Source: Euglena gracilis (lineage: Eukaryota). Taken from it: a DNA stretch of 64,000 bases. The stretch covers positions 9,178,634 to 9,242,633 of the forward strand of contig CP154954.1 in the NCBI GenBank assembly GCA_039621445.1, read 5' to 3'. Position numbers and translations under genes: made by a program. Shown piece by piece: positions 2,583 to 40,797 of this stretch (positions are counted from its first letter, which is position 1; every line of letters begins with the position of its first letter). The notes under the pieces are model-generated. The model saw nothing but the letters and a program-made list of their open reading frames with translations. It was not told where the DNA came from and ran no database searches.

Positions 2583-3149
2583 TTTTCTCTGGAAAAAAAC
2601 CACTGGCGAAGAAGTTGAATTTGGAACTAACTTAGACAACTTCAACAATTGTGCTAAATATTAATGGGCAAGTGTTGAGAATGGGAAAAACAGAATCACT
2701 GGACCCTTTGGTTTGAAGCAAAAAAATCCAGAAAACCCCAAGGTCCCCCTGTTGCAAACCAGACTGGTCCAAGTTTAAAACAACTGCCATCAAACATCAA
2801 ATTTCAGTGCATGTGAAATTTGACCGATTCTCTGGAAATGAAATAACTGATGGGAGGCGTGGTTGGACCCAGAATTCGACTCAAATGGGGTTGTGCACTT
2901 TTCTTTTTGTCATGTGCGCAAATTCACGCGAAAATTCGGAATTGCGTGAAAAGCAAAAGAAAATTTTCCACTCACCTCTCACCCAGTCACCGAAAACCTC
3001 TTTGTAAACCCCTCAGTATAGCTACCGCTGACCTGTGAACGCACAGGGAGTCATGAGGAGGTTCTCCTTGTGGCGAGGGCCAAAAGAGACGTTTCCCTGG
3101 GCCCGGGGCACGGTTAAAAGAAAATCACACCGTTCCAGGATGGACAATC

Positions 3150-4221
3150 AATTACATTGGAACATCCTGAAATTCCCGCGTACGTCATCCCCAGGGCCCT
3201 GTGGGCTTCGTCCCATTCACCTGCAAGACGCAATCAAGCGCCCAGGTAGAGGGGCACATCTGATCTCAGCTCTCGCCAAGCTCACCAACACCTGGGTTAA
3301 TGGGGACCTCCCCTCAGCACACTCCTCGTTCTGGTGCGGTGCCAACCTCACACCCCTCCGGAAAAAGGATGATGGGGTCAGACCGGTGGCAGTGGGCGAA
3401 ACCATACGGAGATTGATTGGCAAAGCCCTATTGGCAACAGGCACGGCTAAAGACCAGGTGAGCAAGCTCCAACCCATACAAGTCGGGGTAAGGGTCACGA
3501 TCGCTGCAGAATCAGTTGCGATTGGCTTCCAACACCTGGTGCACAAACTCGACCCAACCGGAAATTGGGCAAGCCTGCAGTTGGATTTCTCCAATGCCTT
3601 CAATTGCATGGACAGGTCACACCTTTTGTTGGAGGCAACTACCAGGACACCCTGCCTCTTCAATTATCTCAACTTCGCATACAAGAACCCCGCCCCCCTT
3701 TTCTGCGCTGGCAAAGTCCTTTGGTCCCGTTGCGGCACTGGGCTGCCCACTGGGCCCCGTCGGCTTCTGCATCGGCCTGCAGCCGAAACCACCACAAACA
3801 ACGCAGAATTACTCTGGAGTTCCTGGTACATGGATGATGGCATCATGGTGGGACAGCCTGACAAACTGCAGAAAGTCATCTCCTTCCTCCAGGGTGAGGC
3901 CACACGCTGCGGGTTACAATTGAACCTCCAGAAGTGTGTGGTCTGGGGGCCAGCCGTCAATTCAATCACCTCTGCACCAGAAATGACCCTGATTCCGTGG
4001 GAAAAAGATTCAGGTATCACGGTACTGGAGGTACCCGTGGACTTCCCCACAAGCCACCACAAAACAGCAGAAGCATGGGACTGCGCCACAGAAAAAATCG
4101 AACACGCAGCAGACAATGTTACCAGAATGACGGATGCCCAAATCTCTCATCACCTCCTACGCTCATGTCTTGACGGATGCAAAGTCAACCACCTACTTCG
4201 CGGCTCCAACAGCTACCTCTG
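3150..4221 (+). mobile_element. CRE/SLACS-like non-LTR retrotransposon RT fragment, 5' part
   Basis: SPGPCGLR, RPVAVGETIRRL, LDFSNAFN and WYMDDG motifs; local frameshift near 3735-3780; cut by element A1. Confidence 0.85.
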
Positions 4222-4532
4222 TGTGTACCAGGCGTATGCTTCTGTCCCCTTCCGTTGAGGAAGTTAGGATGGAAGCAGATCCTATTAGGATTTCCTAATG
4301 GGTGCCCCTTCTCTCTCCACAGGTGGTATTCTTATTCTTCTTATACCTTTTCCTTGGACTGGACTTGGATTTCCAGTCCGTCCTCCCTGCATTGCTCCGT
4401 GCTTTGCTTCTTGGGAAGTGGGAAAAGGGTTTTTACTGTTACTCTGATTTTCAGTTCCCAAGTAGGTGCGCCAAGGCGAAAGCGAAGGCTTTTGGGAATT
4501 GGGAAAGGGGAATTGGGAATCAGACGTACACT
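4222..4532 (+). repeat. 5' LTR of A1
   Basis: TGTGTACC...GTACACT; appears identical to 18078-18388. Confidence 0.95.
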
Positions 4533-4555
4533 TGGTAGCAGATTGGTTACGATCC
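4533..4555 (+). promoter_or_regulatory. Primer-binding site, initiator tRNA-Met-like
   Basis: TGGTAGCAGATTGGTTACGATCC directly after the LTR; complementary to the typical eukaryotic tRNAi-Met 3' end and T arm. Confidence 0.8.
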
Positions 4556-4601
4556 TATACACACTTCACAAACAGAAAGGCTACCAGGTTTTACACTGAT
4601 G

Positions 4602-7600
4602 GATGAGGTCGAGCCTCGCGGACTCTGAATACGCTTTCGCGCTTCAGGATTAGGGCACTCCCGAGACATATGTCCCGGTTTGTTGCACAAAAAGCACACT
4701 TTATCCGTGGCTTGGTCCGAAGAACGCGGGTATCGCGTTTTCGATCCAGTGGTGGGTGAAGCGGGTGAAACCGGTGATTTTTGCAATACGTTCACCGAAC
4801 CAGCCGGTAATCCAGCGGTTGGGTGTGCGGTATACGCGGATTGAATCTGACCAAGAAGCTGTGATAGCTTCAGTTGCTTGGAAACATAATTCCAGCGTTG
4901 GTCAAGAGTCATTGCATTACCCGCCAACTCCTCACGATGGATATCCTTGATGAGGCTAGGCGTGAAATGCATGAGAACAGCGTCAAACTGTTCGCGCATT
5001 TGCTTTTCACTGAGTTCATCCACTTCAGCGGCAAGTCCTAACCATTTGGCATACCAAAGGTCAATGGACTTCCACTTGCGATCGGGTGGGGCGCATTGCC
5101 GCCACTTGGTCTCCAGGGTAATCCTAGCGACCAAACTTGAACTGGTGGAAGCGTATTGCTCCACCAGGTCATCAAAGGAAACGCGGTAGCGAATGACGAG
5201 TTGTCGCGCGCGCTCCTTCTCATCCCTAGGGAGGCAATCGATGAATTCCATCTTGATCACCTCCGGGTTTGTGTCCTGGGTTGGCCCTTTCAATGCCCAG
5301 TAGTACTCCCAGTCCCGGAAAAACTGTCTCCATGTGGTTGGATCACCGTCCCATTGGGGTTTCACCTTATTCGCGATTGCGATGGTGCCCTTGAAGTCTT
5401 TCTGAAAAACCCGTTGGCCCTCGGTGGTATTCCGTGGATTCGGGCCCGGGTACGCTCGAGCACCAAGCGTATCCTTTCCGGATTCTTGTCGGAATCGCGA
5501 AATTTCTGGTGAAGGTGAATCCTGGTACCGGAAATCCGGTCGCAAACCCTGTTGGTCACCCGTAATAGGGGGACACTCCGGTGTGGGGGTATGTCGCGCA
5601 TGCAACATGTGACCCACTCCCGGTGTACGGGTTTGGCTCATTCCACGCACAAGCATGGAATGATGGATTTCTTGGTGGAGACTTGGCGGAATCGCCGTGT
5701 TTTCCGAAAATTCGGTTCCCGTAATGGGAGATTCATCCGAAAACTGGTTTTGAGTTGTAGGCAAGGCCAATGGTGGCACAATTCGCGGAATCGCGGATTG
5801 TGACACTCGGGACACGGGTGGTGGTGGTGCATATGCACCCAGATTCGGGTTGTGGAAACGCGAATCTGGAGCATCTGGCGTATCTTCGGCAATGCATACT
5901 GCCGAATTGCGGTGTGAAACCCGCTGTTGGTTGGACACATTATCCAAACCCACAGACAAGTCATGCACACTTTGCTCCAAATGCTCAACGAGTTGGAGTT
6001 GGCCGCAAATACGGTCAACTTCATCCTCCAAAGCGCGAATACGCTTGCGGTAACGGGAAAAGTCATCCAAGTGCGGAATCCTTTCGGAAATTCCGGTAAC
6101 ATCTTGGACAAGTTTCCCGTGAGACTTATCCAATAATTGGAGTTGTCCCATTAATGCTTTTACAGCATTTGAGAGAATCTGCAAAGGTGATGTCACCTTG
6201 GTTGGTGTGGTGATGGGTGCAACCGGTGCAGGGTTATCCGACAACACGGTTGTGGTACCCATGGGCAAATTTCCAGGTTGTGGGTTATCCAACAACGCGG
6301 AAATTCGCTCATCCAACCTGGTAATCTCACTTTGCGTGGATCGGGCATTCCGATTCACCGATTCCTCAAGCCGTAATAGGCTGTTGCAGAAATCTTGCAA
6401 GGTTTCCTGATTGTTAGTGAGCATTTTGTCATAAAATGCCTGGAAATCAGGGTTCTCGGTAATCCGAGAACTGGAACCTGCAGGTAGAGACTGCATTTCC
6501 GTTATTTTGGTAGACACCGATGCATACCGGGTCTGGAGTTCCCCAATAGCAGTCTGAATACCGCTAATGTCCGGAACTCGGTGGGAAAGTGCGGAATAGC
6601 TTTGTTGCAAACCCGCAATGGCCGAGTTAATCCCGCCAATGTCGGATTGCAACTGCAACTGCAGGGAATCCTGCCGTTGTGCCATTTCCGCGACTTTCGC
6701 GCTCAGATTGGATAATCCAACCCGATTCGCGTCACAATAGCAGGTTTTCTGCTCCAAACGGGAAAGTCGCTCCTCCAACTGCCGCACATACGTGTGGGGA
6801 GCAAAATTCTCGTTGGCTTGTGACTGGAATTGCCGAAACTTTTCCGTTTCATCGCACAACTGCATAATGCGGTGTTGCGATTCATGGAAAGTTGCGGACA
6901 ATGTGGTGAAATGGTCCATAGACACAAATCCACCACTGCTGGATGTTGCAGACGAGGAATCTCGTGCATGCAACTGTTGTTGCAAATGCAACAACGCGGA
7001 TGAACAGGACTCCATTTGTCCCGATAACTGTTGTAGTGAGCCATGCAAGTGCAGAAACTTGGAGTCATTCCGCGTTTCCGCTTCATGCATGCATTCACTA
7101 ATTTGCCGGAAGTTTTGCGGGAGCTGTTGGCATATTCTGTCAAAGGTTTCCCGAAAGTTTGCAAGGTCAATACCCGCACTTTCGAAGTTCCTCTGGCAAT
7201 ATCTGCCAACTTCCTGCAAGTAATTCCAGCAGTGTTCCAGCTTGGTGAAGACATGTTTCTGGTTGTCCTCATCAAACTGAAGCACTTTGTTCAATGCGGT
7301 TGCACACTCTGCAACGCATTGTTGCACATGGTTGAACTGCCTCACAAGGGGGTGATCCCCTGGAAGCCGAGCAACAATATCCTGCACATCCTCAGCAGTG
7401 AGGAGCTCACCAGTGCCCTTCCCATAGTCATCCATGGGTTGGGATGTACCGGAGAATTCCGGCACCACGAGGCGAGTCTCCGGTTGCCAAGGTAGTACGG
7501 GATAGCACCCGATATCGGGGGGTGGTGGCAAAGCTCTGTAAGGGCTTGCCGGTGGAAGAGCGGGTGGTGGTTGAAAGAAACACGGAGTTTCCAACCCACC

Positions 7601-7942
7601 ATCACCAGAGAAGCCCGGTGGCGGAATCACCACGGGTCTCTCCGGTGTGTGCAGCTGCACCATTGCCGTAGACAGAGGCGAATACCCCCGTTGTGGCAAG
7701 GTGAGTGCGGAAGAGGCCGCATTAGCCTCTGAAGCCAATGATGTGGAGGGCTCATCGCCGACCACTGTCAATGATGACAAGTGTTGCAATTGTGACAATT
7801 GAATCAATTGTGCCTCATCGGCGTGGGAACTGGAAGCACTTTCACATAAAAGCTTCCAATCCCCATTTTCTTGGTCAATGTCTTGCAAGGATGCCTGTAA
7901 TAAGGCATAGTTGAATTGATGGTTGGGGCCTGTGCTTTGCAT
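4602..7942 (-). CDS. gag: Gag of A1, inverted and C-terminally truncated
   Basis: Near-identical to 22278-26204; coiled-coil region, PQWDGDPTTW capsid-like region, CFLCNKPGHMSREC knuckle; likely ATG at 7942 (MQST). Confidence 0.9.
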
Positions 7943-8160
7943 CTTTCTGGTGACAAAAGCAGCAAAAACCCACAAAACTAAGCAGTTGTGCTGGCACCAG
8001 AGGGGCTGTAACGGGTAATACCGTACAGAACCTTCCGGAGCCTGCTCGTCTGCTTAGACGTTGACTAGAAGCCGGGAGCTGACGCTGCGACCGTGTAATA
8101 ACGGTGCAGGGGCTCTCCGCTGCCAGTCAGCGTAGGATCGAACCAATCTGCTACCAAGTG

Positions 8161-11100
8161 TGTTTTCATTGGTGGGATTTACCCGCTGATGTACCACTAT
8201 TTGAGGATTTTTGTGGTATATTATTACCACCTGTTAAAGAAATCATTTTTCGCGTTTGTTTCTTTGACGCATTCGGAATATCCGATGTGCGTATGCCAAG
8301 ATACCTTGGTACCAATGGGGATGCCACACCCTCAACGCAGATTTCTGCGGTCATTGAGAGTGCGGACCAACATCCCAAGTCCGCTGATTATTGTTCGCGA
8401 ATTGCTCGCGAATTTCATGGTGTACTGGATAATCCAGTTTACGCCTGCGACATCGACCCCGCGATTCGCGGTCCGTTCGGTGTTTGCAAAATCGAGCTCA
8501 AGGATGGCGCTAAACCTATGCACCGGAAATTTTTCCGTTGTTCGGGTGAACGCGAACAGGCTCTCAACGAGATGATTGAGAAGCTCATCCAGCGGAAGTG
8601 GATTATCCCTTCCAAGAGCGAGTGGACATCACAAGCTTTTGTGGTGCCCAAACCCGCTGACCAGTCTGGTCAGAAGAAGTGGAGACTGGTGCTGGATTAC
8701 CGGTACCTGAACTCCCAAACGAAGGATGACCCCTTCCCGTTACCGCTGATCGAGGATTTGATCACAAAACAATCGGATAACCGGTTGTGGTCAATCTTTG
8801 ATCTGGAAGACGGTTTCCATCTGATGTTTTTGCATCCTGATTCGCAACCGTACACGGCATTCGTGACATCCAAGGGTGTGTACCAATGGACGGTACTCCC
8901 CATGGGTGTTAAGAATGGCCCAGCCATGTTTCAACGCATGATCCAGTGGGTTTTGCGCGAATTACCGTTTGCTCTGGTGTACATCGATGATGTACTGGTG
9001 GGAACCCAACCGCCATCCGCGAAATCGGGCGAGGATATCCTCGACCCGCATTATCGCGATGTGCGCGCGGTATTATCCGCGTTCCAAAAGCACGTGCTTT
9101 TTGTGAAGGGTTCCAAAATGCACCTGTTTCGCAAAATTATTAAGTTTTGCGGACACATCCTGAGCAACGGGCAGCGTAAAGCCGCACCCAGCAAGATGGA
9201 GGCCATTAAGAAATGGACTCCTGCGGTCATTAAGACCTTAACGCATTTAAAGGGATTTTTGGGATTAGCCCAATACTACGCGATTTACATGAAAGATTTC
9301 GCGAAAATCGCGGTACCCCTAACCCGACAACTCAAAAATCGGACACCCGATAACGCAAAAGTCATTTGGGATCACCAAATGCGCGAGGCCTTGAATAAAA
9401 TCAAGGACTTGCTCCTCGAGAACGTGGTTCTCGATATCGCGGATCCATATAAACCGTATGTCCTGGAGGTCGACAGCAGCGATTACGCTGTTGGCGGGGT
9501 CCTTAGCCAGCATAATGCGGCGAATGAACTCCGACCTGTGGCTTTCTTCAGCAGGAAGCTACAGGGCGACAACGGGAAAGGACAGGTTAAATGGAGCATT
9601 CGCGAAAAGGAGACATATGCCATTGTGCTAATTCTCCAGAAGTTCCGCAGCTGGATAGCCAGCAGCTTGGTCCAGATATTAGTGTTGACGGATCATGAGA
9701 GCCTTCAACACTGGTATACCGAGGACCTGAACAAGGCCATGTCATCAGTTGGCAGAAGATGCCGATGGCATGAGTTCTTGAGCCAGTTTAACCTGGTGGT
9801 AGTTTATACCCCAGGTCACACGCAAAAAGTTGCGGATCCTCTCAGCCGAGCCCCCTGGTATTATCCTGGGAACCCGGATGAGGGTGATGCGACTTTTCAT
9901 GGCAGCCATGAGGCTGACCAGTTCGCACGTCGATCCGACGCTGCGGACAACATGCTCGATTCACTACCGGTTTCCCGGGTGTATCGCAGCATCGCCATTT
10001 CACCATTGCGTGGAAGGCGCCGGCGTGGACGCACTGCCGGACCCCGTCGCATTACGCGTACGGAAACTCCTACCCCCCTATTTTTCCGCGAATGGGATTA
10101 TTCGCGTGACCCGATATATAGTACCATTGTGAATAGACTTCGTAATGGTGAATCCATAGAGAATTACTCTCTATCACCATTGCGGCTTATTTTCCGGAAT
10201 GATTCTGGTTATAAATATTGTATACCCCAAGACCTGGTTGATGATGTGATTTTGAGCTATCACAACCATGGTCACCCTGGGGCCCCCAAACTTCTTTCAC
10301 TAGTGGGTCGCAGATATTGCACAACCCTGAGTGAAAAAGAATTATATTCGCGCTGTTTGCGAATTTCGCAACGGTGCCAAATTTGTCAGGCTGTGAAACC
10401 GCGCAGAGGTACCCCCCCTGGTACGATGGACTTTTTCCCCGTACCACCTGACATTTTTACATCCCTCTGCATGGATTTTCTCGAACTTGAACCTTGCAAA
10501 GGATCAGATGACAAAATTTACGATTACGTTTTTGTTGTCGTCTGTCGGCTGAGTGGGTACATAGTAGCCATTCCATGCCGGAAAGCAGGGTTGACAGCCC
10601 AAATTTTGGCATCCATATTCCTGGAGAAATGCATCTGCTTAATGGGTTTACCGAACGAAATCGTGAGTGATCAAGATCACTTGATCTCTTCGCGGTTTTT
10701 CACAACTTTGTGCGGTTTACTCGGCATTGAGCAGCATTTTTCCATTATATACCGCCCGAAAGGCAATGGTAGAGCCGAGGCAGCCGTGAAATCCGTTGTC
10801 AATATGCTTCGCCTTTCACTGGCTGACTCGGGTAAGAATTGGTTATCCATTCTTCATTGGTGTTTATTTTACATCAATACCTTGCCAGGGTTGGTATTAC
10901 CACACTCACCGTACAAAATTGTTTTCGGACGAGACCCTCCGGCCATAGGGGATATCCCCTCGGAGAGACCCGCCCGAAGTAGCGTCAGCTGTGAAACGTG
11001 GTTTGCAGAAGTGGAATCACTCCGCTCTGCAGTCCAATCACGTATCACAGAAATTCATTCCAACAAACGGAAATCGTTTTTACAAAACTTCAACACACCT

Positions 11101-11547
11101 GTGTATAGTCCAGGTGACCGCGTGTGGGTACGGAATAACCGCACCCGCATGCAATCTTCCAAGCTAGATCCTCTTTGGCTCGGCCCATGCGAAATTTTGG
11201 AGAGGTTAGGTAGTAGCGGGCGATATAAAGTTGCCTTGCCCAACGGGATTGAGGACGTCCATATGGACGACTTCAAACCGTACCTAAGCCCCCCAGACGG
11301 AAAAGCTATCCCCTGCCTATATTTCAAGCCCCGTTCCAGATTACCTGAAACGGACGACTTTGTGGTCGATAAGATAATAGACCACAAGGTCGACAGGGGT
11401 GTGCACTATTGGAAAGTTCGCTGGAAAGGGTATGGGCCAGAGGAGGACACTTGGGAGCCAGCATCCAGTTTTGTTGGATATGTCCAACAGGATTGGAAGC
11501 TGTGGAACAAGCGCAATAACATAGACATAAACATAAACACTTTCTGA
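8161..11547 (+). CDS. pol: Pol of A1: end of Dam-like domain, RT, RNase H, integrase, chromodomain (5'-truncated, open frame)
   Basis: LPMGVKNGP and YIDD; VDSS/EKE/TDH; H-H-C-C and [23 protein letters not shown]. Confidence 0.95.
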
Positions 11548-11742
11548 AACGATTTCGTTTTGGAGAATGCGTGTGTTTTATGTGAATTTTTCGCGTTTAT
11601 ACCCCCCCCTGCACTTCATTATTTCTCTATCTTTATCGCAGAGTTTTGATTAAGATAGAAGCCTTGCTTTTTCAGTGCACCAGCACTCAAAGCGACTGAC
11701 AACAAGGTTACCCTTAGTTGTCGTCGTCGTTCGGGTAGCATC

Positions 11743-14700
11743 ATGCTGCCTGGGCGCGGACCTGGACCAGGTCCACCATGGCCGCAGCCTTCTGGCGCGC
11801 CATACCCCCAGTACCCTCAGTATGCTGAGGCCCCGATTCCGGGTGCCCCACATGCTGAGAGGGTTTCAGCCCCGGTATTCGCCGCGGCTACCAGCAGCCG
11901 GTCCGCATATGCGGTACCAGATCCATCTGCCGTCCAGCAGCCGGCACCTCAGCCACCAGCGCAGCGCAGATCGCGCCTGCCCCCGTATGCGGGAGAGATG
12001 ATCTTCCGCACTACGGAGACGTTGGAGCGGGCGATGCGTATGTGCGCACACCCCCCAACGGAGCCCTTTATGCAAGCCCTTTGGGATGCATACTGCGCTC
12101 AGTGTTGGTGGTAGCCAACACCCCTGTGGCTCAGTGGTGTCCCTGCGGTCAAGCCCTGATGACGGGAGACGGTATTTCTCGTCCGCAGCCGATTCCGGCT
12201 TCGAACCCGGCGAGACCATGATGGACCTGGGCGTGTATGTGCCGCCCATGCTGCAAACGCAGACGCCGGTGGGATCCCACACCGTGCATATGCGTGAGCA
12301 CACGCCCCCACCGGTAGGTGAGGCTGTGCATGTCCCACCTGGGATGACGAGAATTTTTGCTCGCCCGCCCTCGCCGCAGCGAATGCCGCCGCGCGAGCCG
12401 CCAGCGGAGCAATTTGTCTCGCGGTACGCGACGCACGCGGATTACCCGCGCGGCGCACGCGTGCTCCCAGCCGGACAGTCGGACGTGCCCTCTGAGGCAT
12501 ACGTCCAACACATGTTCATGCACTGGATGCCACAAGCATCATCGGTCGCCCCTGCCCCTGGCGTTGAGCCACGGAGGCAGGCGGAGCCCATAGTGGTGGA
12601 GGATGAACCTTCCCACCGTGAGCCAGCCCGCCCAGTGCAGCCCCTGTCCAGACTGGGGATGTCCCCCGTCGGCAGGAGGCTCCCTACTATCATATGGCAC
12701 CTCCGGGAACCGAGCAGGATGAGCTTGCTCGGCACTTCCTGCAGGAGCCAGTATTCGCGTCTGAAGAGCACCGGACGAGGTATTACGCCTCTCTGGCTGC
12801 CCTTCAGGGTCGTGGATACACCCCCTACCATCCGTACCAGCCGCAGCTGCGGGTGGCAACCCCGGTATTACCCGGTGAGCCCCCGGCAGGAGCGGCAGGA
12901 TTACCTGCCACCCTGAAGCGCGATAGGGTTACGGAGAACCTTACCCCACAGCCCAGGCGACCCAGCCCACGGGACGCGGAAGGCGGTGCGGCAATGCAGG
13001 TGGAAGCCAGCCAGGATACCCTGGTCGGGCAACCACCGGCAGTGGCACAGGCAGCGATGAGCCGTCCTGTTGCCGCAATGCCACCGCCGATCCCTCCGGT
13101 ATGGAAGGAGCCGCGACCCCCTACGCCGAAACCAAGCCCACGCCAGGCTCCTAGCCAGCGCCCAATCACGCCGTCACCGCGACGTGCAGCGGAACGGCAA
13201 GGTCCCTCCCCAGAGATGGAATGGGAAGGTACCGAACCGACTCCTGCCGCACCGAGCGCCCGACCCTCTGGTATTCGCCAGACAGGGAAGGACAAAGGTA
13301 AGGCTGAGGGCAAAGGCAAGGGAGAAGGCAAAGGCGTGGCCGGCAAAGGTAAGGGTGAGGGCAAGGGTAAGGGTACAGCCCGTGAGGAGGAGGAAGAACC
13401 AGCAGAAGTCCTCTCGGACTTTGAGCAAATGCTCAGGTTCAAGGAGGAGCTGGAGGACGAAGGCTGGCGAATGCAGCATGATTACCATGTTGCAGGAAAC
13501 CGCCCCGTCACCCCTCCGGAGGCAGTCATCGAGGTGGTATTACACCACACCGAAAAAAGAGTCAGACAATTCCATTACGGAATTGACCTGTACGCCTTCG
13601 AAGGTGAAGGTGGCAGACCCTTGCTGGATGCCCAGCCGGGTTTCTGGGAACTCTGGTTTTGGCTGGGATACCCCTGCCAGAACTGGGGTCTCTTCAGCGA
13701 CTCCACTGGCCGCAGTTACCTGCACCAGTTAGGATTTCGGGACCAGCATGTGTTGGCCCGAAGGCTGAAGGCAATCTTCGACTGTATTCACACAGTCGGG
13801 CCCCTCGGTGTGCAGTGGAAATACTACCCACTGAACCCCGACATCGAACGCCTGATCGAGGTGTTGTGGTGCAACAACCTCCAGGTGTGGCTGGTGAGCC
13901 ATTACGGCTCCACCTTCCGCGTTAAGCGCGTTTCCCTGGCTTACCCACAGAGGTATGACCTCTGTTGTAAGTACTGCCGGCAGGAATTTCCTGTCGACTT
14001 CTGGGGATTCGGCGTGCGCGGAAGTCCTCCACCGCCTCGGGATAACCCGGGCCTGGAGATGGGACGCCGCATGCTTATGCATGTGTGCCGCGACGCCCCG
14101 GATGTCCAGGGCAAAAGTCGCCGCGTCCATAAGCAGCGTATTTTTATGCTGCAACAGTTCTGGTGGCGAGCCTGGACCACCTACGTCATGGAGGTGTATA
14201 TACATCTCCGTGACCCCCAGGACGATAGGCCTGGTATGGAAAGCTTGCCACCAGACTACGGCGACCCCGTTGAGGGACCTCGTCGTCGTCGGGTTATCGC
14301 CGACCTGCGCCCCAACTGGCACCTGGCCGGGATAGACCTGGAGGAACATTTGAGGCGACAGTTTGGCGGTACCCTCGACAGGGAGGTATTCCTCCAGCTG
14401 ATGACTCACCCGAAGGCCATCCTCGACCTGGGTATGCCGATTCTGGCATGCGTGCAGGAGTTCGAGGACGGGTTTTTCGAGGTCTGGGAAGACACGCGTT
14501 ACCGCGGCTTCCTGGGCCCGAACAGGCCTGCAAACGCTTGGGTGCAGCCATCATGGCCGCCACCCTGGCCCAACAGCGCCAGCAGCAGCACGCTGGCCTT
14601 TTACAGGCTGGCGGATGCCCAGGGATGCCGATGGCACCCCGACGATCCTCGTTCGCCCGAGGATCTGCGCGCCTTCATCGCCCCAGAGGATGAACCTCTG

Positions 14701-17256
14701 GCGCGAAGGAGACGGGAGGCGTCAGTCGCTTCCACCACCGCGATTCCGCGGCGGGAGGAACGCGACCGCAGCCCCTCCGTCACCATTCTGGAGGCAGCGC
14801 CGCCGTCTCCGACAGGAACGGCTGTATCCTTCGTCTCTGCCCCGCGAGCGGCAGGGGAAAGATCGGTTTCCCCGGCCCCCGCGACGGCTCCCGTCTGTCC
14901 ACCGGTAGGTGGAGACCAGGAACTTCCTGAGGAGGAAGGTGAGAACGTGGAGGATATCCTCTACGCTGCTCTGCATGCTCCGGCACAGCCTAGGCCAGAC
15001 GAAGCACCCGCAGGGGATATACCTGTGGCTGCTACGCCTGTTCCAACGGCTGAGCCTCCAGCCGAGATGACTGGTATGGTCGTCGAGGATATCCTCGAAG
15101 AACCTACCAGCCCCGCAGCACGCACCTCATTAGGAGGCCGTGTGCTCGGCGCCGTGGTCACTGGCATTACTGCCGTGGCTGCTGCACTAACGCCACGAGG
15201 TGGAGGTGTAGCATCAAGCTCCGCCGCTGAGGTCGTGGAGACACCAGATGTCGGTGTCCCCACACCCCCATCTCCGGCAACAGTGCAACCACCTTCAGGG
15301 GATGAACCCCAGCCGACAGAGCCATCTGTCGCACCGGCTACAGCGGAGGATCAACCTCCTGTAGCACCTGCGCCAGCGGTTGTGGAGGATCAACCTCCTA
15401 GACCGGATGTCGAAATGGAAGTGGAGGAGATACCCCCACGACCACCGACACCGCGCAGGGTCCCTGCCGCCCCGAGGACAATGGCAGAGTTTCTGGGAGC
15501 GCCAGCGCCTGTGGAAGCACCGATTCCGGTGACGACCACAGTGCCACGCCTCGTCGGACAGGATGAACCTGTTCGGCGACGGCCTGCTGAACAACCCCAG
15601 GAACGAATGCCAACCCCTCGGAGCGTCATGCGCGACCCAGCGGTCAGTATGCCCGCTTCGCCCAGACGGCAAACGTCTACTCCGGCACCATCGGCTCCTG
15701 ATACCAGGAGTAAGCCGCAGGCGTCGTCTCCTGATTCCGGGAGTGCGAAGCCGAAAGGAGGCAAATCGGGTGCTGCACCCTGTAAGCCCCCTTCCAAAGG
15801 CGGTGATGGGAAACCACCACCGAAAGGTGGCGCTGGAGGTCAGACTGGCGGACAGCCGAAAGGCCCTACGACAATGCACGACTATTCGGCCGTTGCATCG
15901 TCCGGGTACGGCCAGAGCAAACCGAAAGGTAAGGCTCGTGGTCGACAGGCCCAGTCTTCCGCCGGATCGACGGATGAGGAGCAGGATGAACCTGCTTCAC
16001 CTCCTGTGTCTGCGGATGCCCAGCTCTGGACCCAGGATATCCTGACCAGACTAGGCACCGTGGAAGAGAGGACGAAGAAACTGGCTGCTATTAGGCACCA
16101 GAAAGGGTCACTGAATCGATGGATTCAGCCCCTCTTCGTCCGCGGAGAACCTTTCCACTATGTCCCGGAACATACCTGGACATTCTGGAACAGGCGCTCA
16201 CCCAGAGTACTGGCACAGTACTTTGGTGAGGACTGCGTGTTGGATTTCCAGCACGGCACGTCCTTTGCCTGGACGTGCACCGTGTGCCACCATGTGCGGC
16301 ACAACCAACCGCTTGTGCATGTGTGCAAGCGGCAGGTGCAATCCTCGTGGTTCCATCACAGGGCATATGTGCCGAACTGTGTGGCGCTCGTATGTGGCGA
16401 GTGCCTGAACGCCTGGAAGCACAGCTTGAACTACTCCTACAGTGAGAATGCTCACGACAGGGATATCCCTGCCTTGTGCATCAACTGTATAGGAGGCAAG
16501 TTCGTGCAGACTGCTGATGGAGCAGTCATCACCATTGTCCCCCAGCACTGGGAGACACTGGAGAAGTGGAAGAAGGAGTACAAGCAGGTGGAAGGCCGCC
16601 TGAAGCACTCCGACTACAAAAAGGTAGAAAGCTACCGCCACACGGGAATGGCCCGTGAGTTCCAGATCGACGCTGGGGCAATGCGCCTCGCCGTCGAGGA
16701 ACACGCCAAGGTAAGAATGCCTTACCTCTGGACTGATGGCGACTGGGAGACACAGGTTTACCCCCTGTTCTCCAAGCGTCAGCATGGCGGATACGCCTTG
16801 CCACTGTGGCCTCCTGAAGAACACGATTTGGTGGACTTCAGAGGTTGGTTGGCGGCTGTATTACGGCCCCATACCGCAAGAGTTCGGACAGCGAGGTGGA
16901 TGTATGACATCAACTTCAAGCAGACCCCGGGGATGCCCCCGCAGGTGCCTGCGAATCACCCCCGGATGAATTACATCATCTGGCCGGTGATGCTGCCCAG
17001 AATTTTCTGGGAGCAACTCCAACGGTATCTTCAGCATCATGCTGAACGTACCAGGGAGAAGCTGCCGGATAATTGGATCAAGGACTGGGAGACCCCTTCC
17101 TTTGATGTCAACGATCCGGAGCTCAACACCATTCGGAGTGAATCAGCTCCACCGCGTTCCCCACGCCAACTGGAGTTGGTTGAGGACCCATTAGGGGACC
17201 CCCAACACGACTACTGGCGTGAGGTCCGCGAACGTCCAGCCAATAAAGGCAGGTGA
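11743..17256 (+). CDS. Extra ORF3 of A1, unknown function (~1,840 codons reconstructed; frameshifts in 5' part; 12694-17256 open)
   Basis: Lies between pol and the 3' LTR; 5' frame restored by comparison with 31432-32508; Pro-rich linkers and two Cys/His/Trp-rich domains. Confidence 0.85.
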
Positions 17257-18077
17257 GGTGTCTGTCAGCGCCAATGCGGCGTCTTTCAGCACCCTCGTCA
17301 GGTATTCGCCTGACACCCTGTTTGGGTATTCGCCCGAACAGCCCCTTCGAAGACCCTTTGCGGTATTCGCCGCTAGTAAGTTCCCACCGGGATGCTGCCA
17401 TGTGCAGGATTCCGTGCGCATGCATGCACACCCCTCTCCCCTCTCCCCTCTCGCGGGCGTGCGACACGCAGCGCACAGGGCCGACGGCCTCTTTTCCTTT
17501 CCCTTTCTTTTCTTTTCGGCCGTTTGAGGCCTTAAGGCTGCCAGACAGCACCATTTTTCTGGCCTAAGCCAACCCCCCACTCCTCTCTACTTTCCCCCCG
17601 GGGCAAATGCTGTCGCCGGCAGTTGGTTTTGTAGAGTAGGATTTCCTTTTGCGTGGTCAGGTTTGACTGGCCATGCGCCCTGCCCAGGTTTGACTGGTCA
17701 GAGGCCCCCTCCTTCCACACCCTCCCCATGGGTTTTCCTGGAATGCCCATGGACCCAACCCCAAGTGCCTTTGGCACACCCAAACAGGGTGGATGGGTTT
17801 GCTTGGCAAGGAAACCTGCCAGCCCCATTTTCCCCAATGGGCTATAATATACTATACCCCATAAGCCACCGCAAAATAGGTGAAACAATTTTGCGCGTTT
17901 TGGGCTTTTGGGTCCCCTCCTTTCCGCCCCCCCCCTTTGAGTGGACCCCTGTGCGACGGAAAGGGCCCCTGTGGATGCGCCAGGGTGCACCTCCCACAGA
18001 CCAGGTCTGTGTCCGAAATCCCTGTGGCCAGAATGCCTGGTCCAAAGGGGAAATCGGGCATAGCCCTGGGAGGGGGA

Positions 18078-18388
18078 TGTGTACCAGGCGTATGCTTCTG
18101 TCCCCTTCCGTTGAGGAAGTTAGGATGGAAGCAGATCCTATTAGGATTTCCTAATGGGTGCCCCTTCTCTCTCCACAGGTGGTATTCTTATTCTTCTTAT
18201 ACCTTTTCCTTGGACTGGACTTGGATTTCCAGTCCGTCCTCCCTGCATTGCTCCGTGCTTTGCTTCTTGGGAAGTGGGAAAAGGGTTTTTACTGTTACTC
18301 TGATTTTCAGTTCCCAAGTAGGTGCGCCAAGGCGAAAGCGAAGGCTTTTGGGAATTGGGAAAGGGGAATTGGGAATCAGACGTACACT
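18078..18388 (+). repeat. 3' LTR of A1
   Basis: Follows PPT GGGAGGGGGA; followed by TSD CTCTG. Confidence 0.95.
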
Positions 18389-18960
18389 CTCTGCCAGGAA
18401 GCAGTCAATCGGTCCTCCGAAGTCATCTTACAAGCCTTTGAGGACGTGGTGGGAGTCGCACTGAACACGACACAGAGACTGCAAGCAGCACTACCACTCT
18501 CTAAAGGAGGATGTGGGCTGCGCGTCCCCTCACACAACCAAGCAGCGGCCCGTATAGTAGTACTTTGTGCTTTCTACACTGAAGGGCATCGGAAAATTGG
18601 TCTGCCCCAATAGGCAAGAAGTCCCGTGGCAGATCTCATTGAGCCACCAGTGAGAGAACTGTGTGCTGCCCTACCCAACCATCCGACAGCCCCGAGACTG
18701 CTAGGAAACCTGGCAACAACCCAGACCGCAGGAAAAGATGAGCAGTCCCAAAAATGGTGGTCCAAAGAAATAGGCAAAACCACAATGGACAACCTGATTA
18801 ATCAATGCAAGCCACGGGACCAAGCCCGCCTTTTGGAACAGTCCTCAGGAATTGGTCATGGTTGGATGGCCTCTCCTCCCTCACCGGCTCCACACACAGT
18901 CTTCTCAAGTGATGAGTACTGTCTTGGGCTCAAATGGTGGCTTGGGCTGCCCATCATTGT
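18389..18960 (+). mobile_element. CRE-like non-LTR retrotransposon, 3' continuation (stop at ~18611)
   Basis: Rejoins in frame as SYLC-QEAV once A1 is removed; LPLSKGGCGL and WWLGLPI motifs. Confidence 0.85.
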
Positions 18961-21266: not shown

Positions 21267-22277
21267 TGGTAGCAGTTTAGGTTTTTCGATCCTTTTGACC
21301 GCAAACGGTCGTGTGGTGCCCCGCCATAGGCGATCACAGGCACTACAAGCCGTTTCCGGCCAAAGCCGTACGCACGGACACGTCCTCTGACGGTTCGCAG
21401 TATACGATGCTTCAAACCTCAGAGTTCGGGTCCCTGCTTACTTTTTATACTTTTCCCTCTTTTTGCACTTGTTTCTGCATTTTACACCACAATTCACACT
21501 TGGTTTTCGCATTTTTCCTTTAAAAATGCAGAGCACAACGCCAATTGACTACGCTGCAATGAACCTGCGGCATCGTTGACCAGCTCTATTGAGCATTCAC
21601 AACCCCATAGGGGTAATCAAGCATTGACTCATTTCATAGGTGATCCTCCTTCCCCGCGTGCGTCACACCTATCGGTATCTGTGTCGAGTAATCCCCCCCC
21701 CGCCCAATGGGCACTCCCACACCTATCGGTGTGAAGCTCTATAGAGCAACCCAATGCCCAACAGGCACAACTTCTTCTGTTGGAAAGCCGATCGGCTAAC
21801 ACCTATTCCCCCCGGCGAGATCTCGCACTAGTGCCGATAGGCACATTTGACTCTGAGGCGGATACTGTGTACCAGGCGTATGCTTCCGTCCCCTTCCGTT
21901 GAGGAAGTTAGGATGGAAGCAGATCCTATTAGGATCTCCTAATGGGTGCCCCTTCTCTCTCCACAGGTGGTATTCCTCTTTATACCTTTTCCTTCCTTTC
22001 CATCGGACCGGACTTGGTGATCCAGTCCGTCCTCCCTGCATTGCTCTGTGCTTTGCTTCTTGGGAAGTGGGAAAAGGGATTTTTCTGTTACTCTGCTTTT
22101 CAGTTCCCAAGTAGGTGCGCTAAGGCGAAAGAGAAGGCTTTTGGGAATTGGTAAAGGAGAATTGGGAATCAGATGTACACTTGGTAGCAGATTGGTTACG
22201 ATCCTACACATACTTCACAGAAAGAAAGGCTACCAGGTATTACACTTGGTAGCAGATTTGTTCGATCCTAGGCATCA

Positions 22278-25200
22278 TTGCAAGACATTGACCAAGAAAA
22301 TGGGGATTGGAAGCTTTTATGTGAAAGTGCTTCCAGTTCCCACGCCGATGAGGCACAATTGGTTCAATTGTCAAGATTGCAACATTTGTCATCATTGACA
22401 GTGGTCGGCGATGAGCCCTCCACATCATTGGCTTCAGAGGCTAATGCGGCCTCTTCCGCACTCACCTTGCCACAACGGGGGTATTCGCCTCTGTCTGCGG
22501 CAATGGTGCAGCTGCGCACACCGGAGAGACCCGTGGTGATTCCGCCACCGGGCTTCTCTGGTGATGGTGGACTGGAAACCCCGTGTTTCTTTCAACCACC
22601 ACCCGTTCTTCCACCGGCAAGCCCTTACAGAGCTTTGCCACCACCACCCGATCTTGGGTGCTATCCCGCACTACCTTGGCAACCGGAGACTCGCCTAGTG
22701 GTACCGGAATTCTCCGGTACGTCCCAACCCATGGATGGCTATGGGAAGGGCACTGGTGAGCTCCTTACCGCTGAGGATGTGCAGGATATCGTTGCTCGGC
22801 TCCCAGGGGATCACCCCCTTGTGAGGCAGTTCAACCATGTGCAACAATGCGTTGCAGATTGTGCAACTGAACTCAACAAAGTGCTCCAGTTTGATGAGGA
22901 CAACCAAAAAAAACATGTCTTCACCAAGCTGGAATACTGCTGGAATTACTTGCAGGAAGTTGGCAAATATTGCCAGAGGAATTTAGAAAGTGCGGGTGTT
23001 GACCTTGCAAACTTTCGGGAAACCTTTGACAAAATGTGCCAACAACTCCCGCAAAACTTCCGGCTAATTAGTGAATGCAGGCATGAGGCGGAAACACGGA
23101 AGGACTCCAAGTTTCTGCACTTGCATGACTCACTACAACGGTTATCGGGACAAATGGAGTCCTGTTCATCCGCGTTGTTGCATTTGCAACAACAGTTGCA
23201 TGCACGAGATTCCTCGTCTGCAACAAAAAACAGTGGTGGATTTGTATCTATGGACCATTTCACCACATTGTCCGCAACTTTCCATGAATCGCAACACCGC
23301 ATTATGCAGTTGTGCGATGAAACGGAAAAGTTTCGGCAATTCCAGTCACAAGCCAACGAGAATTTTGCTCCCCACACGTATGTGCGGCAGTTGGAGGAGC
23401 GACTTTCCCGTTTGGAGCAGAAAACCCGCTATTGTGACGCGAATCAGGTTGGATTATCCAATCTGAGCGCGAAAGTAGCGGAAGTAGCACAACGGCAGGA
23501 TTCCCTGCAGTTGCAGTTGCAATCCGACATTGGCGGGATTAACTCGGCCATGGCGGGTTGGCAACAAAGCTATTCCGCACTTTCCCACCGAGTTCCGGAC
23601 ATTAGCGGTATTCAGACTGCTATTGGGGAAGTCCAGACCCGGTATGCATCGGTGTCTACCAAAGTAACGGAAATGCAGTATTTGCCTGCAGGTTCCAGTT
23701 CTCGGATTACCGAGAACCCTGATTTCAAGGCATTTTATGACAAAGTGCTCACCGGCAATCAGGAAACCTTGCAAGATTTTTGCAACAGCCTATTACGGCT
23801 TGAGGAATCGGTGAATCGGAAGGCCCGATCCACGCAAAGTGAGATTACCAGGTTGGATGAGCGAATTTCCGCGTTTTTGGATAAGCCACAACCCGGAAAT
23901 TTGCCCATGGGTACCACAACCGCGTTGTCGGATAACCCTGCACCGGTTGCACCCACCACCACACCAACCAAGGTGACATCACCTTTGCAGATTCTCTCGA
24001 ATGCTGTAAAAGCATTAATGGGACAACTCCAATTATTGGATAAGTCTCACGGGAACCTTGTCCAAGATGTTACCGGAATTTCCGAAAGGATTCCGCACTT
24101 GGATGACTTTTCCCGTTACCGCAAGCGTACTCGCGCTTTGGAGGATGAAGTTGACCGTATTTGCGGCCAACTCCAACTCGTTGAACATTTGGAGCAAAGT
24201 GTGCATGACTTGTCTGTGGGTTTGGATAATGTGTCCAACCAACAGCAGGTTTCACACCGCAATTCGGCCGTATGCGTTGCCGAAGATGCGCCAAATGTTT
24301 CAGAGTCGCGTTTCCATAACCCGACTCTGGGTGCACATGCACCACCACCACCCGTGTCCCGAGTGTCACAATCCGCGATTCCGCGAATTGTGCCCCCATT
24401 GGCCCTGTCCACAACCCAAACCCAGTTTTCGGATGAATTTCCCATTACGGGAACCGAATTTGCGGAAAACACGGCGATTCCGCCAAGTCTGCATCAAGAA
24501 ATCCATCATTCCATGCTTGTGCGTGGAATGAGCCAAACCCGTACACCGGGGGTGGGTCACATGTTGCATGCGCGACATACCCCCACACCGGAGAGTCTCC
24601 CTATTACGGGTGACCAACAGGGTTTGCGACCGGATTTCCGGTACCAGGATTCACCTTCACCAGAAATTTCGCGATTCCGACAAGAATCCGGAAAGGATCC
24701 GCTTGGTGCTCGAGCGTACCCGGGCCCGAATCCGCGGAATACCACCGAGGGTCAACGGGTTTTTCAGAAAGACTTCAAGGGCACCATCGCAATCGCGAAT
24801 AAGGTGAAACCCCAATGGGACGGTGATCCAACTACATGGAGACAGTTTTTCCGGGACTGGGAGTATTACTGGGCATTGAAAGGGCCAACCCAGGACACAA
24901 ACCCGGAGGTGATCAAGATGGAACTCATCGATTGCCTCCCTAGGGATGAGAAGGAGCGCACGCGACAACTTGTCATTCGCTACCGCGTTTCCTTTGATGA
25001 CCTGGTGGAGCAATATGCTTCCACCAGTTCAAGTTTGGTCGCTAGGATTACCCTAGAGACCAAGTGGCGGCAATGCGCCCCACCCGATCGGAAGTGGAAG
25101 TCCATTGACCTTTGGTATGCCAAATGGTTAGGACTTGCCGCTGAAGTGGATGAACTCAGTGAAAAGCAAATGCGCGAACAGTTTGACGCTGTTCTCATGC

Positions 25201-26204
25201 ATTTCACGCCTAGCCTCATCAAGGATATCCATCGTGAGGTGTTGGCGAGTCATCCAATGACTCTTGACCAACGCTGGAACTACGTTTCCAAGCAATTGAA
25301 GCTATCACAGCTTCTTGGTCAGATTCAATCCGCGTATAACGCACACCCAACCGCTGGATTACCGGCTGGTTCGGTGAATGCATTGCAAAAATCACCGGTT
25401 TCACCCACTTCACCCACCACGGGATCGAAAACGCGATACCCGCGTTCTTCGGACCAAGCCACGGATAAAGTGTGCTTTTTGTGCAACAAATCGGGACATA
25501 TGTCTCGGGAATGTCCTAATCCTGAAGCGCGTAAGCGTATTCAGAGTCCGCGAGGCTCGACCTCATCACAAGGTTCGGGTTCCTCCGCGTTTTCACGCCA
25601 ATCGGGCAATTCACGGTCATCGGGTCCCCGTTCCGGTGGTATTAGCCCCCGGATCCCGTTCCGCGATGAGCGGAAACACGGTACCCCTCGGGGTAGGTCA
25701 CCCGGTGCCCCGGCCAAGAAGCGTGATTCTCATCGCGAGGCATCGCGATCGCGTTCGCGAAGCGGATCATCCTCTTCGCGATCCTCATCGGGAAAACCCC
25801 GATACACCGGTCATGGTCGACGGGATACCCGGTCACCACGGCGGTTTGACGGGAAATCGGGAAACCGATCCCCCCGTTTCCCAGAATCGCGACACAAATC
25901 TCGGTGTTCGCTTTGTGGATCGCGTGATCACCACTCATCCAAATGTCCGCGTTCTCGTTCTCCCCGCCCTGGCCAACGTCATCGCGGTATGAATCGCGGT
26001 GACAAGGGTCACTCCTCCAACCGCCATAAAGTCGGTTTCAAGATATCTTGTTTGGAGGATGACACCCCGGCTTCGGGCAGGGAGGGGGATGAGACCAGGG
26101 ATACCGATTTCGACGAGGCCCGCATTGCGGTGCGCACGTTGAAAGCCGTGTATACCTCTAAAAGGCCCATAGCCGGCTATTCGGCCGGTTCGGACCTGGA
26201 GTAG
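22278..26204 (+). CDS. gag: Gag of A2 (1308 aa, start deleted), two CCHC knuckles, RS-rich tail
   Basis: CFLCNKSGHMSREC and CSLCGSRDHHSSKC; ends at TAG 26202-26204. Confidence 0.9.
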   Translation: MQDIDQENGDWKLLCESASSSHADEAQLVQLSRLQHLSSLTVVGDEPSTSLASEANAASSALTLPQRGYSPLSAAMVQLRTPERPVVIPPPGFSGDGGLETPCFFQPPPVLPPASPYRALPPPPDLGCYPALPWQPETRLVVPEFSGTSQPMDGYGKGTGELLTAEDVQDIVARLPGDHPLVRQFNHVQQCVADCATELNKVLQFDEDNQKKHVFTKLEYCWNYLQEVGKYCQRNLESAGVDLANFRETFDKMCQQLPQNFRLISECRHEAETRKDSKFLHLHDSLQRLSGQMESCSSALLHLQQQLHARDSSSATKNSGGFVSMDHFTTLSATFHESQHRIMQLCDETEKFRQFQSQANENFAPHTYVRQLEERLSRLEQKTRYCDANQVGLSNLSAKVAEVAQRQDSLQLQLQSDIGGINSAMAGWQQSYSALSHRVPDISGIQTAIGEVQTRYASVSTKVTEMQYLPAGSSSRITENPDFKAFYDKVLTGNQETLQDFCNSLLRLEESVNRKARSTQSEITRLDERISAFLDKPQPGNLPMGTTTALSDNPAPVAPTTTPTKVTSPLQILSNAVKALMGQLQLLDKSHGNLVQDVTGISERIPHLDDFSRYRKRTRALEDEVDRICGQLQLVEHLEQSVHDLSVGLDNVSNQQQVSHRNSAVCVAEDAPNVSESRFHNPTLGAHAPPPPVSRVSQSAIPRIVPPLALSTTQTQFSDEFPITGTEFAENTAIPPSLHQEIHHSMLVRGMSQTRTPGVGHMLHARHTPTPESLPITGDQQGLRPDFRYQDSPSPEISRFRQESGKDPLGARAYPGPNPRNTTEGQRVFQKDFKGTIAIANKVKPQWDGDPTTWRQFFRDWEYYWALKGPTQDTNPEVIKMELIDCLPRDEKERTRQLVIRYRVSFDDLVEQYASTSSSLVARITLETKWRQCAPPDRKWKSIDLWYAKWLGLAAEVDELSEKQMREQFDAVLMHFTPSLIKDIHREVLASHPMTLDQRWNYVSKQLKLSQLLGQIQSAYNAHPTAGLPAGSVNALQKSPVSPTSPTTGSKTRYPRSSDQATDKVCFLCNKSGHMSRECPNPEARKRIQSPRGSTSSQGSGSSAFSRQSGNSRSSGPRSGGISPRIPFRDERKHGTPRGRSPGAPAKKRDSHREASRSRSRSGSSSSRSSSGKPRYTGHGRRDTRSPRRFDGKSGNRSPRFPESRHKSRCSLCGSRDHHSSKCPRSRSPRPGQRHRGMNRGDKGHSSNRHKVGFKISCLEDDTPASGREGDETRDTDFDEARIAVRTLKAVYTSKRPIAGYSAGSDLE

Positions 26205-31235: not shown

Positions 31236-31431
31236 AACGATTTCGTTTTGGAGAATGCGTGTGTTTTATGTGAATGTTTCGCGTTTATACCCCCCCTGCA
31301 CTTCCTTCTTTCTCTATCTTTCTCGCAGAGTTTTTAATTAAGATAGAAGCCTACTTTTTTTCAGTGCACCAGCACTCACAGCGACTGACAACAAGGTTAC
31401 CCTTGGTTGTCGTCGTCGTCCGGGTAGCATC

Positions 31432-40674: not shown

Positions 40675-40797
40675 GCCGCAGATTCACATGGGGTGCATGG
40701 TGCAGATGCCGCAGATGCACGTGGGGTGCATGCTGCAGATGCCTCAGGTGCACATGGGGTGCAGGCTGCAGATGGCCCACATGGACATGGTGTGCAT
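40675..40797 (+). repeat. 33-bp tandem repeat (~3.7 copies; reads AADxHGVHxAD)
   Basis: GCCGCAGATTCACATGGGGTGCATGGTGCAGAT-like units within a broken low-complexity ORF 40402-41269. Confidence 0.75.

Follow-up and report, generated by a model that had tools for sequence, protein, structure and literature searches.

The 64,000-nucleotide (nt) stretch of the Euglena gracilis genome analyzed here (assembly GCA_039621445.1, contig CP154954.1, positions 9,178,634 to 9,242,633 of the forward strand; hereinafter, the window) consists of nested retrotransposons nearly throughout, with a high density of Ty3/gypsy chromoviruses. Two copies of one such element, A1 (4222-18388, + strand) and A2 (21866-38065, + strand), carry downstream of pol a very long third open reading frame, ORF3, which is the subject of this work. 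As judged from the comparisons described below, ORF3 is probably the gene for an accessory protein that is encoded by a recently active E. gracilis chromovirus, is maintained by selection and represents a new protein family. The element family itself fits the Dam-carrying DAM-LTR group of Euglena (LTR, long terminal repeat).

Coding status and selection

The original prediction on this DNA, made without database searches, placed a frame of about 1,840 codons after pol in both copies. A + strand frame of this extent can indeed be traced at 11743-17256 in A1 and at 31432-36929 in A2, but it is intact in neither. In A1, the ATG at 11743 starts a separate piece of 123 codons, and only 12622-17256 (1,544 codons) is uninterrupted, with three frame-breaking insertions or deletions relative to A2 at 12102, 12163 and 12627; in A2, the frame is interrupted by stop codons at 32506 and at 33859, and a gap of 1 nt follows at 34142. 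Given that both copies are broken and that A1 is also rearranged (see below), neither would be able to make the protein. That an intact frame of some 1,840 codons exists is credible because P0002, a 367-residue protein from another copy of the element (on a 5.6-kb JGI contig) that shares 95% identity with the A2 frame, runs unbroken across the zone that is disrupted in A1. The ATG of ORF3 is located 196 nt past the stop codon of pol, with two more stops of the same frame in between, and these three in-frame stops rule out a fusion of ORF3 to pol by readthrough or frameshift.

At the local base composition, the probability that a 1,544-codon frame remains open by chance is about 4e-22. The pattern of substitutions between A1 and A2 (MAFFT alignment, Nei-Gojobori counting) is that of a protein-coding gene: the ratio of nonsynonymous to synonymous divergence (dN/dS) is 0.345 in the true frame (90 synonymous and 100 nonsynonymous differences; p = 2.4e-12) compared to 1.26 and 1.15 in the +1 and +2 control frames, respectively. 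Two stretches of pol in the same pair yield 0.27 and 0.33, the first of the two conserved blocks of ORF3 (block 1, see below) yields a pol-like 0.26 on its own, and the linkers outside the blocks yield 0.41 (p = 5e-5). All these values understate the constraint because they include the neutral change that followed insertion. Such figures indicate that, during the divergence of the A1 and A2 lineages, ORF3 was translated under a constraint similar to that on pol. The purifying selection that had been proposed for ORF3 is thereby borne out, and neutral evolution of the frame as a whole finds no support; the companion claim, that the rest of the frame is Pro-rich linker, was slightly too strong in view of the constraint on the linkers. 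Synonymous divergence (dS) differs tenfold between the two blocks (0.18 in block 1 and 0.017 in block 2), which suggests recombination between element lineages.

Organization of the ORF3 protein and the distant copy

The two conserved blocks, of 413 residues each, are separated by 455 linker residues. Block 1 (13411-14649, + strand) is rich in Trp and contains a C-x2-C ... C cluster and the motif VDFWGFGxR; block 2 (16015-17253, + strand) contains a Cys/His cluster at about 16276-16488 and the motif PGxPxQxxxNHPxxNxxIWP at about 16927-17103. An internal duplication can be ruled out, the hhalign probability for block 1 against block 2 being 0.1. Linkers with 17-18% Pro and 13-14% Ala make up about half of the protein. 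In A1, a Lys/Gly-rich basic run (GKDKGKAEGKGKG...) occupies 13285-13386 (+ strand), and a hydrophobic Ala/Gly/Val/Thr segment (15142-15201, + strand) is embedded in the Pro-rich linker.

A decayed homolog of ORF3, with frameshifts and stops, is detected by tblastn elsewhere in the window, at 60375-63922 (+ strand), with 27-37% identity (E = 1e-49 and 1e-40 for blocks 1 and 2, respectively). Such a homolog had been predicted with the same end but with a start near 59300. In accord with the predicted confinement of conservation to two globular blocks, the matches fall in the blocks only: residues 242-420 and 420-591 of A1 ORF3 (together, nt 13345-14394) align with 60402-60911 (31% identity) and 60899-61381 (37%), and residues 1169-1536 (nt 16126-17229) with 62804-63886 (29%), along with a weaker match of residues 1043-1249 to 62484-63086 (27%). 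Accordingly, block 1 of the distant copy occupies 60402-61381 and block 2 occupies 62484-63886, the hydrophobic segment lying between them near 62200; GKGKGK and KGQGQVQKG runs precede block 1. The GKGKG run and the short segment that had been noticed as amphipathic thus both have counterparts here, the latter also in the database relative P0005. The distant copy adjoins the 5' side of a minus-strand element that encodes Dam-like and DNMT (DNA methyltransferase) domains (the entire arrangement spans 51914-63922), with no gag in between, and the order of pol followed by ORF3 would be restored if the pol segment of the minus-strand element were inverted. No LTR pair for that element (51914-57627) is found within the window.

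Relatives of ORF3 in sequence databases

When 1.84 billion representative proteins were searched exhaustively with HMMER, the query being the portion of the 1,544-codon frame from residue 345 to residue 1544 (nt 13654-17253), 24 matches were retrieved at E <= 1e-3, of which 16 are at or below 1e-10 and 2 at or below 1e-30. All are short proteins, and, together with the distant copy, they support the prediction of a protein family with distant relatives. The best match, P0001 (EukProt EG_transcript_25142), is 100% identical to ORF3 over 230 residues in the block 2 region. Four of the matches, P0001, P0003, P0010 and P0018, are E. gracilis transcripts, and, besides P0001, two matches bear the EukProt label EP00667_Euglena_gracilis. 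The sources of 20 of the 24 matches are Logan (8), ENA (5), JGI (5) and EukProt E. gracilis (2), a listing in which P0001 and P0003 were placed separately as E. gracilis transcripts and P0015 and P0022 were left out. The contigs behind the source-listed matches are 573-3,715 nt long, and the database fragments are probably truncated. One metatranscriptome run (X3), which may contain DNA, includes contigs with 95-99% identity. A word-indexed search with block 2 gave no matches among proteins of 849-2702 residues, a word-indexed query with the alignment added nothing to two proteins already found, and scans of metagenomes and of IMG/VR for the locus gave no confirmed relative. On the evidence of these searches, the known occurrence of the ORF3 family is limited to E. 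gracilis and to environmental or transcript contigs that bear no organism label.

Alignment with block 2 is seen for ten fragments of 106-431 residues (22-38% identity), and block 1 is represented in five; the divergent relatives (25-36% identical) are open over 185-431 residues. In block 2 (alignments numbered A1, A2 and A3), the conserved columns include C88 (6/7), C91 (7/7), C104 (6/6), H114 (5/6), C122 and C127 (7/8 each), C155 (8/8) and C158 (7/7), and in the C-terminal motif, P305, G306, Q310 and N314 are each present in 9/9 sequences, with H315, P316, N319, I322 and P324 also invariant. In block 1 (alignment A4, 8 rows), the corresponding columns are C186 (5/6), C189 (6/6), F197 (6/6), R203 (6/6) and C226 (5/5).

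In P0003 and P0015, 43-67 residues are 94-95% identical, and in frame, to the ORF3 linker at about 15240-15440; one of these proteins shows a weak match to the response-regulator receiver domain, and in P0015 the linker stretch is internal. This overlap reflects either an exonized retrotransposon fragment or a chimeric transcript assembly.

Searches for known families and folds

In agreement with the original view that ORF3 does not look like an envelope gene, the sequence searches revealed no known family. ORF3 matches no Pfam family, and members of the block 1 and block 2 alignments give only scattered single matches at chance level (E >= 0.02); NCBIfam yields one chance-level match (Lar, E 0.037), and the PDB profile search yields none for block 2 and one, at chance level, for block 1 (AbiA, E 0.52).

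Structure modelling and fold comparison covered block 2. The AlphaFold2 model from the single sequence reached a pLDDT of 32.2, and that from a 17-row alignment a mean pLDDT of 60.2 and a pTM of 0.50, with 110 of the 413 residues at pLDDT >= 70; the Cys/His cluster and a C-terminal helix are modelled with the highest confidence. Foldseek comparison of this model gave no credible match (best E 5.0 against PDB and 0.75 against BFVD). In a VIA-align comparison with 48,161 chains, the best Z score was 3.8, and the alignments listed are limited to roughly the first 48 residues, which form the N-terminal helix; in a second look with VIA, none of 23 chains reached Z >= 2. Because of the quality and length of the block 2 model, these blank results are not proof of a new fold.

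So is there any hint of the nature of the blocks? Block 2 contains eight or nine conserved Cys/His residues arranged in C-x2-C pairs, with the ligand spacing C-x2-C-x12-C-x9-H-x7-C-x4-C-x2-C-x24-C-x2-C. In the ESM Atlas, RING-type clusters are listed first for block 2, with a score of 0.81, a level attained by shuffled proteins in one case out of three; for block 1, there is nothing above 0.78. None of 14 block 2 members matches a RING or PHD model of Pfam at E <= 1.

Expression

A pyrimidine tract followed by AG (ttgctttttcag; 11663-11674, + strand) is located 69 nt ahead of the ORF3 ATG and recurs in A2 at about 31352-31365. This site is a candidate acceptor for cis-splicing or for spliced-leader trans-splicing. 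Three RNA runs labelled E. gracilis, about 5-6% of each, were mapped on 4222-18077 (13.9 kb); in one of them, 30/30 bins are covered about 1-2 fold, on both strands. At most, the ORF3 region is transcribed at a low level, and the read depth is too sparse to settle the existence of a dedicated ORF3 mRNA. An odd RNA junction joins 4240 to 17605 with CTCT in between (3 + 2 reads), and loose RNA ends at 17626 were set aside as short matches beside a repeat.

The carrier elements and their surroundings

Copy A1 is bounded by paired LTRs (311 bp; 5' LTR at 4222-4532 and 3' LTR at 18078-18388, both on the + strand) that are identical at 311/311 bases, and is flanked by a perfect 5-bp target duplication, CTCTG (4217-4221 and 18389-18393, as read directly from the flanks). 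A TGG... primer-binding-like site follows the 5' LTR at 4533, and a purine tract (gggaggggga) is found just ahead of the 3' LTR. The identity of the LTRs implies that the insertion is very young. The pol gene of A1 (8083-11547, + strand) encodes, by Pfam, a reverse transcriptase (RVT_1, E 5.8e-25), RNase H (RT_RNaseH_2, 2.2e-24), integrase (rve and Integrase_H2C2), SH3_Tf2-1 and a chromodomain (Chromo, 8.8e-10); in the 1,154-residue pol frame, the order is RVT_1 (189-360), RT_RNaseH (429-569), Integrase_H2C2 (714-774), rve (795-892) and Chromo (1093-1128). The succession of reverse transcriptase, RNase H and integrase with a C-terminal chromodomain, together with the LTRs and the target duplication, identifies the element as a Ty3/gypsy chromovirus. 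The gag gene of A1 (4602-7896, - strand; zf-CCHC zinc knuckle, E 6e-6) is inverted relative to pol and ORF3: in a blastn comparison, 4602-7896 aligns with 25567-22270 of A2 at 96% identity. In addition, about 2.4 kb corresponding to 25568-27938 of A2 is missing from A1. This combination of gag inversion and sequence loss (A1 4602-8157) is found despite the identical LTRs and the perfect target duplication, and reflects either a non-autonomous copy mobilized in trans, or a rearrangement just after insertion, or an assembly error.

Copy A2 is collinear, with the order LTR, gag, Dam-like stretch, pol, ORF3, LTR; its LTRs agree at 302/316 bases and its target duplication is GATAC. The gag gene of A2 (22272-26204, + strand; 1,310 codons) carries a zf-CCHC domain like that of A1; it is very large, with a single zinc knuckle near residue 1070 and coiled-coil-type matches at chance level. 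The Dam-like stretch lies within 26745-28223 (+ strand) and is weak: the frame 26745-28220 matches Pfam Dam with E 7.9e-4 and 19.6 bits, under the 28.1-bit cut-off. The Dam-like stretch is missing from A1. The pol gene (28224-31235, + strand) encodes reverse transcriptase, RNase H, integrase and chromodomain. No C5 methyltransferase (Pfam DNA_methylase) was found in the scanned frames of A1 and A2, nor any aspartic protease family at E <= 0.01; a weak protease match occurs only in the neighboring minus-strand element.

The latter, a separate retrotransposon at 51914-57627, encodes Dam-like and DNMT parts, protease, reverse transcriptase, RNase H, integrase and a chromodomain. Its Dam-like part (56923-57627) matches with E 1.3e-4, below the cut-off, and the N-terminal part of the C5 DNA methyltransferase (56486-57097) with 25.5 bits against a cut-off of 22. 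A direct repeat of 420 bp, 99.3% identical and 1,293 bp apart (57517-57936 and 58810-59229), doubles the start of the Dam-like frame. Other related elements occupy 38066-47940 and 48094-50313. The gag of one neighboring family is 43-55% identical to that of A1 and A2, and this family is partly duplicated (38066-40230 against 43180-44411, 95%); A2 apparently inserted into such an element, given that 21283-21865 matches 42601-43184 at 97%. A third, truncated copy of the A1/A2 family extends from an LTR at 48094 through gag up to 50313. Upstream of A1, a 408-codon frame (3032-4258) with a weak RVT_1 match (E 1.4e-6, just under the cut-off) ends at the A1 insertion site and is probably another retroelement interrupted by A1.

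Alternative explanations

How well, then, does the interpretation of ORF3 as a selected accessory gene of the element hold up? Quite a few observations weigh against it. Both copies in the window are broken and A1 is rearranged to boot; the dN/dS figures derive from the comparison of just two copies, with only 13 differences (p = 0.30) in block 2, too few for testing it on its own. Within the same element, third-position GC is 0.71 in block 1 and 0.69 in block 2 as opposed to 0.52-0.53 in gag and pol (the ORF3 linkers are at 0.52-0.59), a contrast that hints at a separate origin of the blocks, with separate expression as another candidate cause. The model of block 2 is mediocre and has no fold match; the spacing of its Cys/His residues does not fit what we take to be the RING and PHD consensus; and the case for zinc binding by the blocks consists of the conserved Cys/His columns and the weak RING lead from the language model. 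The RNA support is thin, with 42, 26 and 204 reads on both strands, and no joint, start or loose end occurs near 11674 in the three sparsely mapped runs. Finally, tblastn within the window finds no pol on the same strand upstream of the distant copy, so the linkage to pol is seen for one family only.

One alternative is that ORF3 is a transduced host gene, or a fragment of one, that travels as a passenger and does not serve the element. The third-position GC of the blocks, sharply unlike that of gag and pol, fits this possibility; retroelements of the same lineage have captured Dam and DNMT domains, as the main text of a recent preprint describes (bioRxiv 10.64898/2026.05.21.726589); and part of the ORF3 linker is found inside P0003 and P0015, which are transcripts of response-regulator-like host proteins. 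However, selection at the level of pol between copies of the element would not be expected unless the product contributed to propagation, a version with 27-37% identity is present elsewhere in the same transposon-dense window, and no full-length named host protein has turned up, with zero block 2 matches in the 849-2702 residue range and otherwise short fragments. We therefore consider the passenger scenario quite improbable. An old capture from a host, followed by domestication for the needs of the element, is compatible with ORF3 being an accessory gene.

Another scenario, to which we likewise assign a low probability, is that the 5.5-kb region yields two or more products through splicing or proteolysis, with blocks 1 and 2 residing in separate proteins. 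The two blocks are unrelated by hhalign and stand 455 linker residues apart, the database relatives each span a single block, the tenfold gap in dS bespeaks differing histories of the blocks in A1 and A2, and a related copy of the element family has a weak match to an aspartic protease. Conversely, the continuous frame of 1,544 codons in A1 spans both blocks, the linkers are themselves constrained, the order of the blocks is the same in the distant copy, the database fragments come from short contigs and are probably truncated, and no splice joints are seen in the RNA, albeit at very low depth.

The location of ORF3 immediately invites comparison with envelope genes. Conceivably, ORF3 could be a divergent envelope-like gene of an endogenous retrovirus-like agent, with the Ala/Gly-rich segment as the fusion peptide or anchor: it occupies the env position after pol, and the segment, which has a fusion-peptide-like composition and a hydropathy of 1.6, is retained in the distant copy and in P0005. 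Yet the Kyte-Doolittle profile (19-residue windows), which is the sole basis of our statements on signals and anchors, shows no N-terminal hydrophobic signal, the Pro-rich N-terminus reaching a maximum of 1.08, and no hydrophobic stretch near the C-terminus that could be a membrane anchor, in agreement with the original prediction. The only peak that reaches 1.6 is internal (1.60 at residues 837-855 of 1,544), and the next best, 1.23, is inside block 1. The Pro-rich N-terminus, the single internal peak and the plain C-terminus make for a poor fit to a type I envelope protein; moreover, no envelope family of Pfam is matched at E <= 0.01, and a protein about half of which is Pro/Ala-rich linker with basic tracts looks like an intracellular one. 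The envelope scenario is thus very unlikely, and the sequence features support the view that ORF3 is recognizable neither as an envelope gene nor as an ordinary host gene.

Finally, that ORF3 is a functionless, decaying relic whose frame happens to be long because the sequence is GC-rich and poor in stop codons hardly merits credence, notwithstanding the interruption of both window copies and the low RNA coverage on both strands, given the vanishing chance of such a frame, the dN/dS deficit in the true frame alone, and the open frames and shared Cys/His columns of the divergent relatives.

Possible function and implications

If ORF3 is an accessory gene of the element, as we favor, the product of intact copies, about 1,840 residues long, would be soluble and would not be secreted. 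Blocks 1 and 2 would each fold into a module with a conserved Cys/His cluster, and the long, disordered Pro/Ala-rich linkers that connect these modules would carry the basic Lys/Gly tracts as well as a single short hydrophobic helix that is conserved. The protein would be made from a spliced or trans-spliced subgenomic RNA of its own, via the candidate acceptor site that precedes the ATG by 69 nt, and would act in trans for the element, binding nucleic acid or chromatin through the zinc-type modules and the basic tracts, in a regulatory, ribonucleoprotein-scaffolding or anti-silencing capacity. That the protein is a trans-acting, nucleic acid- or chromatin-binding factor that supports replication or counters silencing is a possibility we put forward tentatively. 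For the chromatin or anti-silencing variant, which the original prediction had already suggested, the backing comes from context, namely, the chromodomain and the weak Dam-like stretch of the element, and Dam plus DNMT in the neighbor. A bolder version appears rather unlikely: ORF3 would be the first of a new class of host-manipulating proteins encoded by retroelements, and its zinc-type modules would be an E3-ligase-like or chromatin-effector pair that, jointly with the chromodomain and Dam (and DNMT in sister elements), makes up a self-contained epigenetic counter-silencing toolkit, while the linkers drive the formation of replication condensates.

By one published estimate, LTR retrotransposons account for approximately one-fifth to one-third of the E. 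gracilis genome of 2.4 Gb (PMC11252322), and Euglena elements have assembled unusual epigenetic toolkits, as stated in the main text of the preprint cited above (bioRxiv 10.64898/2026.05.21.726589). A selected, family-specific third gene of 5.5 kb would rank among the largest accessory genes of any LTR retrotransposon and would add a protist case to the few known retrotransposon accessory proteins; its role could explain the success of the element in a genome that uses both 5-methylcytosine and N6-methyladenine. Even if it is only a passenger, ORF3 would be a useful annotation marker for the large unclassified share of the genome.

Comparison with known systems

The closest known systems are the DAM-LTR and 'EpiLTR' retrotransposons of Euglena (Fernandez-Moreno et al., bioRxiv 10.64898/2026.05.21.726589). 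As described in the main text of that preprint, DAM-LTR elements share with the elements analyzed here the host, the Ty3-like LTR organization, the chromodomain and, in the case of A2, the Dam-like stretch, whereas the EpiLTR combination of Dam-like, DNMT and chromodomain is found in the neighboring minus-strand element and not in A1 or A2. The difference is ORF3 itself, which has no methyltransferase match in Pfam; a third ORF is not mentioned in the main text of the preprint, as distinct from its supplements, and, in the literature searched, we found no other paper that joins Euglena and chromoviruses.

In plants, Ty3/gypsy elements of the Retand/Tat type are described as having additional ORFs, with a TRP28 domain, in the region that extends from pol to the 3' LTR (Vicient 2025, PMC11963269). 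By that description, the likeness consists in a long region between pol and the 3' LTR and a conserved, lineage-specific protein with a suspected nucleic-acid-binding regulatory role; the Retand elements are set apart by being non-chromoviruses of flowering plants in which these ORFs are antisense. ORF3, in contrast, is sense to pol, extends for about 5.5 kb, has no Pfam match and belongs to a protist chromovirus with a chromodomain.

The env genes of errantiviruses and other Ty3/gypsy elements resemble ORF3 in being a third ORF past pol that probably needs a subgenomic mRNA of its own; they differ in that ORF3 shows no signal peptide or anchor by hydropathy and no envelope family match, and is about half Pro-rich linker. 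Certain Ty3/gypsy elements of orchids have reportedly captured an N6-methyladenosine demethylase domain. There, too, an extra conserved module is fixed in an LTR retrotransposon and is thought to help against host regulation, but the captured modules belong to known families, whereas blocks 1 and 2 match none. With RING and PHD domains, block 2 shares the C-x2-C pairs and the weak Atlas lead (0.81), and differs in its spacing relative to the presumed consensus and in the lack of a Pfam or fold match. Thus, extra ORFs after pol are already known elsewhere, and what the E. gracilis chromovirus would add to them is two apparently new protein domains.

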